Assembly (NCBI RefSeq): GCF_018350175.1
Contig: NC_058379.1
Span: 73,160,001 to 73,224,000 of the forward strand
Reading direction: 5' to 3'
Length of the DNA stretch: 64,000 bases
Origin: Felis catus
Taxonomy: Eukaryota
Translations under genes and position numbers: made by a program
The notes under the pieces: model-generated
Told to the model about the DNA's origin: nothing
Database searches by the model: none
What the model saw: only the letters and a program-made list of their open reading frames with translations
Part shown: piece after piece, positions 2,991 through 63,289 of the stretch
How the letters are laid out: the number at the start of each line of letters is the position of its first letter
Numbering within the stretch: position 1 is the first letter of the stretch

Positions 2991-3789
2991 TGCATACATT
3001 TTTTATTCTATTTTTAGGAAGAACGTGGCATCCAGGAAATATATTACATTGATGACTTATTCCCAAGGGTACAGAAAGTGTCCCATTTACCCTGCTTGGG
3101 TCATTACCTCAGCCTGGCCCATCCGAACTGGAGCTATCCTGAAGGTAATGAGGTTGCCTCTCCAACCAAAGGCTAGGAAAAGGGAAGCATTAAAGAAATA
3201 AAGCATGCCATTTAAGCGAAGATGCAACATGCTGAAGAAGCAGTATTTTCTAAAATAGCTAAATGTGGTTTCTTTCAACATGAGACTAGTGCCCCTATTT
3301 CCCTTTAGACTTTGACACAAGCTTTTTCTTTATTTNNNNNNNNNNNNNNNNNNNNNNNNNNNNNNNNNNNNNNNNNNNNNNNNNNNNNNNNNNNNNNNNN
3401 NNNNNNNNNNNNNNNNNNNNNNNNNNNNNNNNNNNNNNNNNNNNNNNNNNNNNNNNNNNNNNNNNNNNNNNNNNNNNNNNNNNNNNNNNNNNNNNTCCTT
3501 TCTTGTTCTTTTCTCCTTCCCGGTTCCTCTGCTTCCCTCAGACCCCCCCCCCCCCACGTTCCACTTGTTAGAGGTCATGTTACTTCTCTCAGTTCTGGGG
3601 TCTTCACCAGAATGTTGTCAAAAAGGTTGCTCTCTCATGTTCTGGAATCGTGGTGGTCCTTCAGGCTGTTCTTTCGGTGAATGTTCTTTTTGTCCATACA
3701 GCCACAAGGGAGATGGTGAAGATGGCGTCCTGCACGCACTTTGGAGCCTGGGTTCTGCCCTGGCTCTAATGTCCACCTGCTGAGCGGTC

Positions 3790-12229: not shown

Positions 12230-13690
12230 TGTTCATTTACAGATTCATTCCAATAAATATTTATTGACAAAACTGCTATGTGCTGGACACTGTGCTAGGC
12301 TCTGGGGACATTAAGATGAAAAGAGGCAATCTCTGCTTTCACGGTGCTTACAGTCTAAAAGTGGAAACAGACATGCAAACAAATTTACAATACAGTAAAG
12401 TGCTTCCGTGGAGGTATTTACAGAGTGCAGGGGGAACCTGGAAGAGGGAAGAACATCTTGCTGGAGAAATCAGGGACAGCTTCACAGAGGAGGTAGCCAC
12501 TGAGCTGAGACTTGACCAGTAACCAGGAATTTGCCATGTAGACAGGCAGGCAAAGGGAATGACAGGTGCAAAGACACAGAGGCCCAAGGGGCACTCAGAA
12601 GGACCAAGTAATGTAGTTTTTCTTGAGCTGAAGGTGATAAGAGGGGCAGGATGACCTAGACAAATAGGCAGGGATCAGATCATGGAGAGCCTTTTGATCA
12701 TTCATCCATTTATTCAACAAACATTTAATAAGTGCTTACTATGTACCAGGCACTAGGCTAAATGCTGGGGTTGTACCAGGGAACAAGACAGATACATCCT
12801 CGCTCTCGTGGAGCTTACATTCTAGTAAAGAGATAGACAAAAAGTCAACAAATAAATACAGATTGAGAAGATTTCTACAAAGGAAATAAACAGAGTGCTG
12901 AGGCAGAAAACGAATATTACAGGGGCGGAGAGTAGTTACAGTTATTAGAAAATGCCTCTTGGAAGTGACATAAAACTGACACCTGCAGGGGTTATGACAA
13001 AGGCATGCTCCGACGGGAGCGTTCACTATGCACCAGGCACTGTGCTAAATGCTTTATAAACAGTAGCTCATTTAGTCCTCACGACGACTCTATGAGGTAG
13101 TATTATTCCTATTTCACGGAGGAGGAACAGGGCTCAAGGAGATTAAGTCACCTGACGAGTCACACAAATGGCAAAAACCAAGGTTCAGACACAGGTTCTC
13201 TTCATTTCAAAGTGCTCACTCTTAAAAATTCTTAAAATAATTCTTAAAAATTACATGGAGAAGTGAGAAACTTCGAGTAGGGAAATGATACAGTCACATT
13301 TGAGGACCATTCTGATGACCATATGGAGGAGCAGGGATGGAGACAGAAGGAGGGAAGGAGGGAGGGAGGGAGAAAGAAGCCACTCAAAGTCCAGAGGAGA
13401 GGAAAGGAGTTGCATGAAGACAGTGGTTGCGGAAATGAAGAGGTATGGGTGTGAGAAGGGCATTTGATAGTTCTAACAGGACTGACAGGACGTTGGAAGC
13501 AAGGGAACAGGGACCACTCAAGGGCACCCGCTTTGAGCAATTGAATGGGATGATTTGCTTCTACCCTTGTTAGGGGATGCAGGACGGTGGTAGATTTGGG
13601 GAATAAGATAATGAATGTTTAATTCTGGACATGTTATCCTGTGGATATCTTGGGAAGACCTGGACTTATAAGATGGTCGCCAGTTGGACA
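12230..13690 (-). mobile_element. L2 cluster (3' ends near 12235 and 12700) with a nested MIR at about 13020-13215
   Basis: cattcattccaataaatatttattga ... tatgtgctggacactgtgctagg and ttcatccatttattcaacaaacattta ... ggagcttacattctag L2 signatures. Confidence 0.75.
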
Positions 13691-17859: not shown

Positions 17860-18585
17860 CCCTCGGCGGCTCACGTGAAAAACCTGGAGTCGTCCCCATC
17901 ACTTCCAATCAGTCACCTGGTCAAGCTGATTCTATCTCCAAATACATCTCAAACGGACCTCTGCTCTTCCTCTTTCTCTGCACCCACTGCCAACATTCCT
18001 GTGAAGCCACCATCTCTCTCACTGCCAGGCTACAACAGCCTCCTCACTGGCCACCCCGCGTCCAGGCTGTCCCTGCTCTAATCCTCTCTTTCACACGGCA
18101 GCCAAAAGGAACTTGCACAGAAGCACATCTGACCATGTTCCTCAGCCTTCAGTGGATTCCCATTTGCTTTAATGTTAAAGCTGGAAACCCTTAACAACAA
18201 CCCATCAGCACGATAAGATTCGCCTCCACACATTCTCCCAGTGCTCCCCAGACCTACTGTAAAGGCACCGACTTCTCCTTGCTGTTTCTTTTCATGGGAA
18301 CACTTTTATCCCCAACTCTGGCCTACTGCTGCTTGCCCTTGAGGCTCAACATAAATGTCACCTCCTCAGAGGCTTTGTTGACCCTTCACACCACGTTAGC
18401 TCCCCTGCCATCAGCTCCCCCAGTACCTTTGCTTTTCCTTTGTAGCACTGATCACAGTTGGTAATTATGGAATGTGGTGAGCGTCTGGTTAGTACAACTG
18501 TATGGCACGTTCCATGAGCAGAGGGACCGTGTGATTGTGGCCACCAGTGTGTCTCCAGAACTAGCACCAAAAGCAAGAATGACTA
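17860..18585 (+). mobile_element. L2 3' region
   Basis: aaaacctggagtc ... tacaacagcctcct ... aaatgtcacctcctcagagg ... ttccatgagcagagggacc. Confidence 0.75.
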
Positions 18586-39064: not shown

Positions 39065-40267
39065 TCTGAGACTCTTCTCATAAGCACCGCTGAACAGTCA
39101 ACAAATTTCATCCATTACTTTATGACCAGCATGAAGCAGATCTTATCATTTGTGCCCTAATTTCCTATAGCTTCTTGGTGTTTTCCTAGCCTTAAGTCAT
39201 TCTTTATATTACATACAATAACCAAATTAAGACCTCTGTCTAGAATGTTCTCCTCCATACTTCTCTGCTTTTGAAGACCATATATTATGTGTTTTTTTTT
39301 CACTGCACTTATCATACCATGGTACATTATGTACATATTTGTCTGTCTCTCTTCCTATTACAGTAGAAGGTAAGATCCATGAGATCAGGGGCTGTTATTT
39401 TGTTCACTGAACTATCCCTACTACTTGGGTAAGGGCCTGGCACAGGTTGAAGGCTCAATTAAAGATTTTTTAATTTAAAAAAATTCACTAATTAATTCAT
39501 TGAGTCAACAAATGCATATTAAACACTGACATAATGGAGATATTGTGGATAAAGTGATGAGTAATTAATACAGTTAGATCAGAAAAGGAGAAGGGAGAGA
39601 TCCTAAGGAGGATCTCTAAACCCAGACTTGATCAGTTAGAGGTTTTCGAAACAGGTAAAGTGATATCTAAGTTCACACTTGAGGGAGGAGTAGAATATAG
39701 ATAATTAAATGTAGGAAAGAAAGCAGGATGAAATATGACCAGGGGATGCAGGGGCAGGAGGCGGCCATGAAGTGGAGTGAATCAATAGCATGTTCAAAAA
39801 TCTGCAAAAACTTTCATGTGATTCACATGTAGAACAAGAAAAGAAAGTGAAGCCAAAAAGATAAGCAAAAGCCAAATCATGAAGGACTTTGTAAGTCATG
39901 TTAGGTGTTTTAACTTTGTACATCATACTTAGGGGTTTTTTTCCTAAAACCTTATAAGAATCATTGAAAGCTTTTGGGAGAGGTAACACTGTCAGATCTT
40001 CATGTCAGGTGGAGTTTCTGGATGCAATATGAAGAATAAATTGAAGAGAATAAGAAGCAAAGAGATGAGACGAAATGACATTTACCTGGTACAGGGATGG
40101 AGCAAGTGAATATTCAGGAGACAGAGTCAATTGGACTTGTCGGCTAATCAGAGGTTTAGGGTAAATGATGGGAAGAGTCTAGGATGATGCTCAGGTTCTG
40201 GCTTAGGCAGCTGAGTGGACAGTGGTACTTTCATTAAGATAAACAAAGCACATAGAAGAAAGGGCCA

Positions 40268-48200: not shown

Positions 48201-48271
48201 CTTGAACTATGTCTGGTAAAAATACCAGAATTGTCTGACAAATAAGATTGGAGAACCAAGTAGATCCTTAC

Positions 48272-48409
48272 CTGACGTGGCTGCTCGTTCATTCGTTGTG
48301 GGTCTGACTTCACTTTATTACTAGGATGATTTGTGACTTTGGTAACTGGTTGTTTGAAAATTGATGCGGTTTGTCTAATTGGCAATGTTGTATTCAAGTC
48401 TGGTTTACC
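48272..48409 (-). CDS. MBD2: MBD2 exon 3 (138 nt), intrinsically disordered region
   Basis: cag|GGT AAA CCA ... CGT CAG|gtaagg. Translates to GKPDLNTTLPIRQTASIFKQPVTKVTNHPSNKVKSDPQRMNEQPRQ, the MBD2 sequence. Confidence 0.97.
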
Positions 48410-52642: not shown

Positions 52643-53534
52643 AATAACTTCATGGGCTGGGACAGATGCTAGAATAGGCCCAAGATTTAGTACCAATTCC
52701 ATTCCTATCCTTCATTTTTTGTAGATGTAACAGCAAGAAACCCTATTTGCATAAATGAGTAAATAGAATGAGCTTTCTTCTCAGTCAATTCTTTGAACTT
52801 CTTTTGAGTTATATGTCAAAATATCGCATAGTGAACCATCAAAAATTTTTAATAATCGAAGTCTACATAAAGTGCTCTGTAAATTTTAGACAAAGAACTT
52901 TACTGACAGAAAGTCTTGACTGTTACCAAGTAATTCATTTTCTCGGCATCGACACCAGTATTTCAAATTAATCCTTTACTGGAGATCAAACATTTTGCAC
53001 CATGGTAATACAACAGGCTAGTAAAAAGTATGCTCTTCTGTAAAATGGGAGAAGGTGGACTACAAAAGGGCAACTGGGGAAAAAAGAGTTTGTACCTCCA
53101 TCCCGGGGCATGCTCAGGTCCACTACACGAAAGAGTATACTTCTAGAAGTTAAGAATATAGAAACACTCCTTTAAAACCATGCGTGTTGTGTGTACTATG
53201 GAAGCCTTTACACAGCATAGTTTTGAATAGCAGGAACTTATATATTCTAAATACCACTTTTTCCAGCCTAGCTTTGAAATAAAACTGAATGACAGTTCAA
53301 AATTGTACATATTCTATGACAAGAACCAAAAGGACTCATTTCACCTTTAAAATCCTTGCAAATTTTGCACTTTTAAAAATTAGCCATGTTTTAATGTAAA
53401 AAATGTTGCTCTACCTACCCAAAATGCTCAAATAAAACTGATACTTCCAGTATCATTCATCATTTTAATTCCATGGCTTTCCATATAGTACATCCCCCAA
53501 GAAATATTCATGCCCCCATTTGAGAACTTTGTTT

Positions 53535-53765
53535 TTCTGGGATCACTTTCCTCATCTGTAAATGAGGATGATAACAATAACCATTCATAAGATTCTTACA
53601 AAGATCACACAAGATAATGCATGTATAATGCTGCTTTCATCCAGTCATTGAACAAATACTGAGTGCCTACTACGTGCCAGACACTGACTGTATGCTGGGT
53701 ATACAGTCATCATCAAAACACAAAAATCCCTGCCTCAGAGCTTATGTTCTGGGAGAAGACAACAA
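53535..53765. mobile_element. MIR core followed by an L2 3' end (minus)
   Basis: tttcctcatctgtaaatgaggat; tcattgaacaaatactgagtgcctactacgtgccagacact. Confidence 0.7.
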
Positions 53766-55589: not shown

Positions 55590-56190
55590 TGTCCACGTCA
55601 CCATCATTCCTGCCTGAACGAGCACTGGCCCCTGACTCCCACTTCTGCACTTCCACATTTTCCACACAGCAGCCAAAGCAATCCTATTGCTCCCTATCTG
55701 GAGTCCGAAAATAGCATTCCATACCATTCCTTATGCCAGCTTGACAAGCCGTGATTAGGTTGTCTGCTGCCTTGACCTCACCTAGGATGCCTTCCCCTCG
55801 CACTAAACTCCAGCCACAGTGGCCTACTCTGCTCTCACAGGCTTAATGTATCCTGCCTTAGGGATTTTGCACTGGCTACTCCCTTTACATGGTATGCTTT
55901 TCCTTGTGATTTTTGTATAGCTCACTCTTAATCATTCAGATCTCAGCTGCAAAATCCTCCTCTTGGAGAAAACTTCCCTGATTGCTCAGCCTGAACAGCC
56001 ACCCAGTCAGTCTCAACCACTGTTAATTGATTCACAGTACAGCACTTGATATTTAAACTGTGTATTAGTTTGTCATACCACTAGAATTAAAGTTCCATGA
56101 ACACAGAAACTTCCTTTACCGTATTTTTCAGAGTCTGCGATAATGCCTAAGCATATAATGTGCTAAAAGTTTTCTGTGGAATAAATGGAT
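55590..56190 (+). mobile_element. L2 3' region
   Basis: ccacacagcagcca ... ctccagccacagtggcct ... tcattcagatctcagct ... ctagaattaaagttccatga. Confidence 0.7.
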
Positions 56191-61600: not shown

Positions 61601-62141
61601 ATATATTAAGATCTCAGTATATAATCGGTCATTATGAACTGCAATTTAACCTGTTTCAAAGTTTATTTTGTTAATAACATTTCAAATTCTTTCAAGGGTT
61701 TTTAAAAACCTCAAAAACAACACAATTAATAACGTACTTCAGCCAAGTTTATAACTATACAGCAAAACCACCTAACATTCCTGTTTACTAATTTAAATTT
61801 CCCAGCATTCTCTATACCATATTATTTTTTAAAAAGATGTAATACATTATTAGCCACAAATACACTTTCTGCTTTATAGAGATATTCAGTGTTGGCATGA
61901 CTCCAAAAGAAAGCCTATTTTTAAAACTGCAAAACTCAATTTTCTGAATGCTTAATTAAAAGAAAATCAGGTGCAAAAGTAAGACTATGCCCCCCAAAAT
62001 TCAAATAGAAACTTCAGAAAACAATGACAATGAAAGGTAGTTCCAAAATAATGTACGGCATATTAATTTATTCAATGTTTATGACCACTATAAACTTCCG
62101 GAATGAGGTGAATAGTAAATCAAATAAACATGAAGCAAACA

Positions 62142-62147
62142 TTTATT
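62142..62147 (-). terminator. AATAAA poly(A) signal for the MBD2c terminal exon (second AATAAA at 62067-62072)
   Basis: Plus-strand tttatt, within the L2 3'-end motif GTAGGTACTTAATAAATGTTTG on the minus strand, about 33 nt after the stop. Confidence 0.7.
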
Positions 62148-62179
62148 AAGTACCTACCGTGTGCTAGGCTTTGGACTAC

Positions 62180-62503
62180 CTATACAAAAGAAAAAGAAAA
62201 AGAAAGAAAAAGACAGTCCCTGCCCTCATGGAGCTCACAGTCTAGTTGAAGCAGACAAACAATCACAAATACAATGGCAAAGCACCAGGGAGGCATTATG
62301 GAAGAAGGGACTGGTCCTGCCTGATGAATGCAGGGGCGGGCTTCACAGAGGTGGAGACAATGGAGCTGGGCCTTGGATGAGCAGGAGTTCACCAGATGGA
62401 GGGGAAGGGGGGAAGCGCATTCCAAGCAGAGGAAACAGCACATGCGCAAGCAGAATCTCGAAAGCACATGCCATGGTGCAGGAGGATGAGCAGTCCAGCG
62501 CAG
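62180..62503 (-). CDS. MBD2: MBD2 alternative terminal exon (MBD2c / testis-ES short isoform), 107 codons plus stop, L2-derived
   Basis: Minus strand reads cctttatgctctag|CTG CGC TGG ACT GCT CAT CCT CCT GCA CCA TGG CAT GTG CTT TCG AGA = LRWTAHPPAPWHVLSRFCLRMCCFLCLECASPLPLHLVNSCSSKAQLHCLHLCEA. This closely matches the recalled human MBD2c tail (LRWNTHRPAPWHALSRLCLLIRCLLCLECAYPLPLHLVNSYSSKTQLHCLHLWEA). Phase-0 acceptor, same phase as exon 3. TAG at 62180-62182. Confidence 0.8.
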   Translation of the reverse strand: MRWTAHPPAPWHVLSRFCLRMCCFLCLECASPLPLHLVNSCSSKAQLHCLHLCEARPCIHQAGPVPSSIMPPWCFAIVFVIVCLLQLDCELHEGRDCLFLSFSFSFV

Positions 62504-63289
62504 CTAGAGCATAAAGGTGCACACAAACTAAAGAGACGAATTAGTTTTTGGTTTTTAGTGAATCGTAACTATCAGGTATAAATCTTCATATTACACTTAC
62601 TGTAGCTTAACTGTGATTCTGATAACAATAGGGCAGTTTGAAAATATTCCATTCATTTCACAAATATTTGAGCCCTTTTGACAGGTACCCAGCAATGTGG
62701 TTAGAGTTGTTTTTGTTTTTTTAAAGCAGTTTTAGAAAAATAAATCTTAATATTCCTCTGTACATTCAAGCAGCAAAATTAACCCAGAATAAAGGTTCTC
62801 TTAAGCTGAATCACAGAGCTTCACCTATACACACTACACTCACTTTTGGTAATCTGAGTTCCCTGTACTACCACTATCTTTTTTACCCTTAACACTTTTG
62901 TAACTATCAACCCAAAGTAACCCCACAATTAAGCAATAGAGAAAGCAATTTCAGCTTTCCCTTCCCATTCTGCCTATCTAAACATGGTACTTGACAATGC
63001 CCCTATGGACATCAATGCATGGTGACCAATGCAACAGATGAGGAAATAATGCACTCTGACCCCCATACCAATTTTTGGAAATTAAACTATTAAAAACAAA
63101 CTATTCAGCTGAATTCTGAATAAAGAGAGCTACGAAGCAGAGACCCATAGCATTTCAGGAAAAGTAAAAAGGTACAGAGGAAGAGATCTTCGGTCAAAGA
63201 GTTTCCCACACTGGCCACCAAGCAACACTGTTCACCGAGGAAGCTTGGAGCTTAGGAGGGTGCGATGCGGAAAAGAAAGGAACTCACAT

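Follow-up and report, generated by a model that had tools for sequence, protein, structure and literature searches.

The window, by which we mean the whole stretch of 64,000 nucleotides analysed here (Felis catus contig NC_058379.1, positions 73,160,001 to 73,224,000), carries MBD2 on the minus strand. Exons 3 to 6 are identified by their similarity to mammalian MBD2 (Table 1), and exon 2 lies beyond the window. An old dispersed repeat, which accounts for almost the whole of an alternative terminal exon, is located 14 kb upstream of exon 3 and thus probably in intron 2. Eight N gaps of 132–390 bases each (1723 in total) are spread over positions 3336–55286, and none is close to the exon.

Table 1. 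Features of the MBD2 locus in the window
Feature	Position	Strand	Basis
MBD2 exons 4–6, intact	~25973-25875, 24573-24388, 19718-19593	-	tblastn, 89-100% vs mammalian MBD2
MBD2 exon 3 (phase-0 start), left out of the c isoform	48269..48409	-	tblastn, 96-98%; acceptor context
Branch-point-like motif, A at 62541	62540..62544	-	sequence; putative role
Upstream acceptor AG 62529-62528 and 7-codon tail FVCTFML	62504..62529	-	6/7 residues as in chimp model P0014
First 55 codons from downstream acceptor AG 62505-62504, primate MBD2c frame	62339..62503	-	47/55 lemur P0001, 41/55 chimp P0002
C run, frame +1 base relative to primates	62333..62336	-	sequence and frameshift-aware alignment
AG...GT stretch, 54 nt, shifted frame; 18-residue cassette in automated bear model P0011	62267..62320	-	17/18 identical
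TAA equivalent to the primate stop, out of frame in cat	62296..62298	-	sequence
T-rich simple tract coding the Phe/Ser-rich tail end	62186..62211	-	sequence
TAG ending the 107-codon frame	62180..62182	-	Tyr, Tyr, Cys in three non-primate ORFs
Dispersed repeat, old, same orientation as MBD2; nearly all of the alternative terminal exon	62125..62513	-	nhmmer copies in window; L2 landmarks by eye
Likely L2c microRNA-source segment	62226..62248	-	by eye vs miRNAs in Table 3 of PMC6433296
Likely L2 terminal segment with AATAAA 62147-62142, likely poly(A) signal	62129..62149	-	sequence; miR-95-5p 15/21
Other copies of the repeat end	12254-12550, 12709-12847, 18280-18536, 39343-39467, 55804-56133	two adjacent on -	nhmmer

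The initial annotation had described a long open frame in this exon, and this observation is confirmed. Starting at the downstream acceptor, 107 codons can be read (62503–62183, minus strand) before the TAG at 62182–62180 closes the frame. The neighbouring frame stops at the TAA at 62298–62296, 208 nt from the acceptor. Of the 107 residues, 13 are Cys, and residues 73–85 (62249–62287) form an unbroken hydrophobic run of 13; 32 nt separate the stop from the AATAAA at 62147–62142. When the sequence is dinucleotide-shuffled 3000 times, a frame of at least 107 open codons arises in 2.9% of cases, and the stretch of 51 codons 3′ of the frame shift remains open in 11%. Among 541 intronic yAG read-ins, the MBD2c tail itself is the one that reaches at least 107 codons. 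Pyrimidines make up 64% of the exon and A only 15%, and this low A content makes stops scarce. A Pfam search returned no family at E values up to 1.

The cat exon does not keep the 68-codon primate frame; it shifts after codon 55 and continues to 107 codons in total. The claim that the MBD2c terminal exon is frameshifted is borne out by frameshift-aware alignment, in which the lemur and chimp tails each align with one switch, between 62339 and 62337. The alignment with the primate end that the annotation had put forward is likewise confirmed by database proteins, the 68-residue tails of lemur P0001 and chimp P0002. The lemur tail is identical to the cat exon at 47 of 55 residues before the switch and 8 of 13 after it; the corresponding values for chimp are 41 of 55 and 7 of 13. 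The one-base shift relative to primates is very probably real. The extra base could instead be a homopolymer error of the assembly, since it falls in a run of four and the N gaps in the window mark the assembly as a draft. Against such an error, all 42 sampled 31-mers of 62150–62600 are present in 15 of the 24 listed runs, from six studies, one of which may be the assembly's own source; this support consists of k-mer shares of runs, with a 5–6% chance, if sampling is random, that no sampled word spans the C run. The 15 runs comprise 14 of organism A (five studies) and one gut metatranscriptome. Six of the other listed runs hold 0.50–0.91 of the words (one organism A run, 0.69), and three hold none. 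We consider an assembly error highly improbable.

Two AG acceptors lie 24 nt apart (exon starts 62527 and 62503), and their pyrimidine tracts are moderate, with 12 and 14 pyrimidines of 20. The A at 62541, in a motif that we take to fit the branch-point consensus, lies at distances of 14 and 38 nt from the upstream and downstream acceptors, respectively. Splicing to 62527 would place the whole repeat, including the one-base shift, in the 3′ UTR. A single TAG triplet serves both isoforms, closing the 7-residue frame and supplying the AG for the 62503 acceptor. The terminal exon presents both a phase-0 AG acceptor and, downstream, a likely poly(A) signal; another AATAAA begins at 62072. A human MBD2c primer (PMC8938476) matches 62480–62459 at 20 of 22 positions by eye.

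The exon likely derives from the 3′ terminus of an ancient, sense-oriented L2 retrotransposon, to judge from its other copies and from two landmarks. With the exon as query, nhmmer finds five further copies above threshold in the 64-kb window (E values 8.8e-15 to 1.2e-4) and three below it. The five copies jointly span query positions 48–436 (62513–62125) and are ~60–72% identical in blastn pieces. PMC6433296 lists microRNAs that arose from L2 3′ ends; miR-28, miR-151, and miR-708 have their source segment in L2c. For L2 on the plus strand, PMC2553571 reports that AATAAA is found within the final 50 nt, ahead of poly(A) sites. The first landmark, 62248–62227 (minus strand), matches miR-708-3p at 19 of 22 positions by eye, with the first 17 contiguous. 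The second, 62149–62129 (minus strand), matches the L2b-derived miR-95-5p at 15 of 21 by eye, AATAAA included; the terminal AATAAA segment is common to L2 and MIR and counts for L2 only beside the miR-28/151/708 segment. The two landmarks are in the correct order, the second ~80 nt downstream of the first. Rfam gives five matches in 61800–62800, all far below the gathering score and none to the miR-28 family, which we take as chance. A metagenome motif scan was likewise judged to return chance matches, with three of three loci matching a 20–25 nt motif alone.

Among the openly accessible papers listed by the literature search, none links MBD2 to L2 exonisation or to transposon-derived intronic polyadenylation. 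MBD2 is absent from the supplements of the exonisation papers PMC2203978, PMC3765721, and PMC10515820, and is not named in the main text of PMC6433296. The preprint 10.64898/2026.10.21.760529 mentions MBD2 for 3′ UTR length only. The overlap of MBD2c with L2 may already be plain in subscription papers or genome-browser repeat tracks.

A protein search with the 107 residues gave one match, the lemur MBD2 model, among 20 candidates. A search with the last 95 residues of that model gave 105 proteins among 132 candidates. The 68-residue tail is found in two of the 105 (lemur and chimp) and the 7-residue tail in four, all primate models; 63 have no match to the junction motif and are hence unclassed. 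The feliform records P0036 and P0045 are both full-length types. These counts leave room for the reading that the exon is not meaningfully used in cats, and that the shift is the decay of a dead or primate-biased exon. Both alternative tails are confined to primate models, the feliform records are full-length, and no felid protein with the 107-residue tail is among the 20 candidates. In addition, the L2 signal of IL18R1-Short is conserved and its expression is species-restricted (10.64898/2026.05.25.727421). However, both AG sites, the branch-like motif, and the AATAAA are intact in the cat, and the proteins are clustered at 90%, so that clustering and sparse annotation can hide isoforms. Five metatranscriptome runs hold 0.50–0.91 of the sampled words and one holds 1.00, values that neither distinguish RNA from DNA nor tell which part of the sequence is represented. 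We rejected the shares of 0.50–0.91 as evidence of expression, since an exon-only contig would give 0.77–0.83 and splice junctions are invisible to shares. An exon without meaningful use in cats is, on balance, rather unlikely.

Several gene models required separate judgement. The 18-residue cassette of the bear model might have represented a conserved shifted frame; this was rejected, since panda and rabbit models carry other short inserts at the same junction, and all of these are likely gene-model artefacts. In the Prionailurus MBD2 model P0045, an exon is predicted at 53417–53556 (minus strand); the window matches it in two frames, and it is likely an intronic artefact. The felid identity of the window is based on this intronic match and on runs labelled 'feline metagenome'. 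A Pro in exon 5 was rejected as a felid marker, since it is present in five of the 105 proteins, three of them from bats.

A search of 1.84 billion representative sequences gave two matches, P0106 and P0107. P0106 was rejected as a Cys-rich repeat protein that matches by composition. P0107 led to P0108 and P0109 (the three being 3 of 93 candidates); candidates were limited to 96–308 residues, so a species with an intact 68-codon frame could not appear, and the sample is biased accordingly. All three ORFs, which come from non-primate mammals, continue past the repeat, to 62017, 61951, and 61991, respectively, indicating that they are orthologous to the cat locus. Relative to the window, P0107 has three frame switches within the exon, P0108 four, and P0109 seven, as deduced from protein and not from DNA. 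P0108 and P0109 have a common shift near 62412 and may represent one lineage. The cat stop is absent from all three, and all three run through the position of the AATAAA. As far as the protein sequences show, P0108 and P0109 are without the extra base of the cat. P0109 switches frame at 62335/62333, and P0108 has the primate residues there; we therefore infer that the extra base is derived in the cat lineage.

Identity to the three ORFs is no higher in the 5′ part of the exon (164 of 242) than in the 3′ part and flank (168 of 227; Fisher p 0.16). Lemur and chimp agree at 54 of 68 tail residues and at 85 of 85 of the preceding residues. The lemur identity of 47/55 exceeds the flank level of 74% (p 0.03), and the chimp identity does not (p 0.53). 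Between cat and primates there is a single indel in 208 nt, and no stop falls within the first 55 codons. Mild constraint on the tail in some lineages is possible. The mouse MBD2c tail is short and not known to be related. The annotated reading of the exon as that of MBD2c stands in one part, the exon being the orthologue of the primate terminal exon (47/55 and 41/55), and lacks support in the other, that a conserved coding tail has been altered, as the exon is repeat-derived, its frame is broken elsewhere in three of three non-primate ORFs, and the hydrophobicity follows from base composition. The segment 61951–62188 (minus strand), which covers the repeat end and the sequence beyond it, shows 72–76% translated identity in P0107–P0109 and may be a conserved 3′-end region.

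The tail had been called newly Cys-rich and hydrophobic. The first attribute does not survive comparison, as Cys makes up 12.1% of the cat tail vs 11.8% in lemur and 8.8% in chimp. Eight of the 13 Cys are encoded 5′ of the shift, and in lemur eight of the 68 tail residues are Cys, so the shift does not account for the Cys content; the 13 Cys do exceed the shuffle mean of 7.2 (p 0.015). The second attribute is confirmed, with a GRAVY of 1.25 for the last 30 residues, vs −0.31 and −0.87 in the primates, and 2.06 for the last ten. The last 90 coding nucleotides are 49% T; shuffling gives a mean GRAVY of 1.39 for the last 30 residues, and the other two frames give 1.69 and 1.19. The hydrophobicity thus follows from the T-rich base composition, whatever the frame. 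Of 54 distinct intronic read-in ends, the MBD2c tail included, one attains this hydrophobicity. The five other repeat copies, read in 15 frames, have GRAVY values of 0.09–0.70 and Cys contents of 1.9–8.7%.

The suggestion that the tail acts as a C-terminal degron is retained in part: the hydrophobic last 30 residues would fit a degron if translated, and the Cys richness is not new. U-rich non-coding sequence gives hydrophobic tails that are degraded (10.1101/2022.07.20.500724), and enrichment of Cys and hydrophobic residues promotes degradation, with an outcome that depends on arrangement and ligase (PMC12976096). MBD2 does not appear in the text or the six supplements of PMC12976096. Substrates of such degrons are expected to be lost to the proteasome through BAG6/RNF126 or other ligases. 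The 107-residue form is likely degraded if it is made, and the long oily tail is likely a neutral by-product and not a new function.

A stronger claim would be that selection in felids favoured the shift because it equips the MBD2c decoy with a degron of its own, by which the decoy is tuned or switched off after translation, with the choice of acceptor (7 vs 107 residues) setting its stability. The rise in GRAVY relative to both primates, the degradation-favouring composition (PMC12976096), the retention of the tandem acceptors in primates and cat, and the identical words in 15 runs from six studies are all in line with it. However, the hydrophobicity equals the shuffle expectation, the cat stop is missing from all three outgroup ORFs, and sharing within a species says nothing about selection. 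We regard selection for a degron as improbable.

Tail-anchored proteins have one transmembrane segment of ~17–22 residues near the C-terminus. The best 19-residue window of the cat tail has a Kyte–Doolittle mean of 2.33 and leaves 20 residues on its C-terminal side, as could be expected if the tail were a membrane anchor that keeps the methyl-CpG reader outside the nucleus. However, the unbroken hydrophobic run is 13 residues, the primate tails have windows of 2.09 (lemur) and 1.80 (chimp), the three non-primate ORFs do not keep the frame, and in human cells MBD2c has been detected in nuclear lysates and on chromatin (PMC5345072, PMC8938476). The proposed membrane association is accordingly weak, and an anchoring role is very unlikely.

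The likely L2c microRNA-source segment may also bear on regulation. By eye, 62246–62226 (minus strand) is complementary to nucleotides 5–21 of miR-151-5p and nucleotides 3–17 of miR-28-5p (human and mouse miRNAs). A centred site consists of 11 perfect pairs from miRNA nucleotide 3, 4, or 5 (PMC4053950), and the candidate pairing has this arrangement on sequence, without a full seed. Non-canonical microRNA sites are reported not to repress (PMC4532895). Every L2 end resembles the L2-born microRNAs, so we treat the candidate miR-151/28 site as a lead only. It would fall in the 3′ UTR of the primate and 7-residue forms and in the coding sequence of the 107-codon form. With this site included, the exon could be seen as an L2 invention of a pluripotency-linked NuRD-reader decoy, in which L2 contributes the exon, the poly(A) signal, and the miR-151/28 site, and a 24-nt acceptor choice selects between a stable 7-residue tail and a long tail that a single base has made into a degron in cats. 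We would give this broader proposal only a small chance of being correct.

The account that we favour, and consider reasonably probable, is that the exon is the frame-shifted orthologue of the primate MBD2c last exon, that an L2 end lends it acceptor and poly(A) signal, and that truncation is what works while the tail is unconstrained. MBD2c keeps the MBD and lacks NuRD binding (PMC4880565, PMC4260518, PMC5345072, PMC8938476, 10.1101/2021.03.17.435677), and the available text of these sources assigns no role to the tail. The sense-oriented repeat would supply two acceptors and an AATAAA to MBD2. Exon 2 would be spliced to the repeat and the RNA would end there, as is known in human cells and presumably holds in the cat. 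The product would be an MBD-only competitor without the NuRD-binding part. If truncation alone suffices for function, indels and stop changes may accumulate, and the cat base would be one of several. Use of 62527 is predicted to give the 7-residue tail, a form unaffected by the shift. From 62503, the predicted tail is 107 residues long, and its T-rich end would likely mark the protein for quality control of hydrophobic tails. Overall, the amount of long-tailed MBD2c would fall, and no new activity would be gained.

By itself, the cat shift is ordinary and lineage-specific. If the exon that defines MBD2c is an exonised end of L2 whose tail is free of constraint, this would support truncation as the functional principle of MBD2c, and it advises caution in transferring results on the human 302-residue protein to other mammals. 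The analysis also points to an overlooked 7-residue form of MBD2c and to a possible miR-151/28 site.

Human MBD2c (MBD2t) has three exons and 302 amino acids (PMC8938476). Like human and primate MBD2c (PMC4880565, PMC4260518, PMC5345072), the cat form would use an exon located before exon 3 in phase 0, share 55 homologous residues, and lose the NuRD-binding part. Unlike primate MBD2c, it has the +1-base shift, 107 vs 68 residues, a hydrophobic last 30 residues, and another stop.

Sites of polyadenylation derived from L2 and MIR, of the skipped terminal exon type, have a plus-strand L2 3′ end with an AATAAA just upstream of an intronic site (PMC2553571). The MBD2c exon resembles them in this arrangement; its own cleavage site is putative. 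Similarly, the exon shares with the tails of translated non-coding sequences (10.1101/2022.07.20.500724; PMC12976096) a U-rich sequence that yields a hydrophobic, Cys-rich C-terminus; in contrast to those tails, degradation of MBD2c is a prediction only, the outcome being dependent on arrangement and ligase (PMC12976096). With the L2-derived miR-28, miR-151, miR-708, and miR-95 and their L2 targets (PMC6433296), the exon has matching L2 segments in common. It differs from those target sites in that its pairing is without a full seed and is coding in the 107-codon form.

To judge from the analogy, IL18R1-Short (10.64898/2026.05.25.727421) is the closest worked example for the MBD2c L2 exon. In both, an L2-derived intronic poly(A) signal yields, or in the cat would yield, a truncated competitor, and the tail length varies by species; the L2 tail of IL18R1-Short is 22, 23, or 5 residues long, depending on the species. 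In MBD2, by contrast, the L2 end would be joined by splicing, as a terminal exon that has tandem acceptors; the host gene codes for a nuclear chromatin reader, and the tail is far longer.
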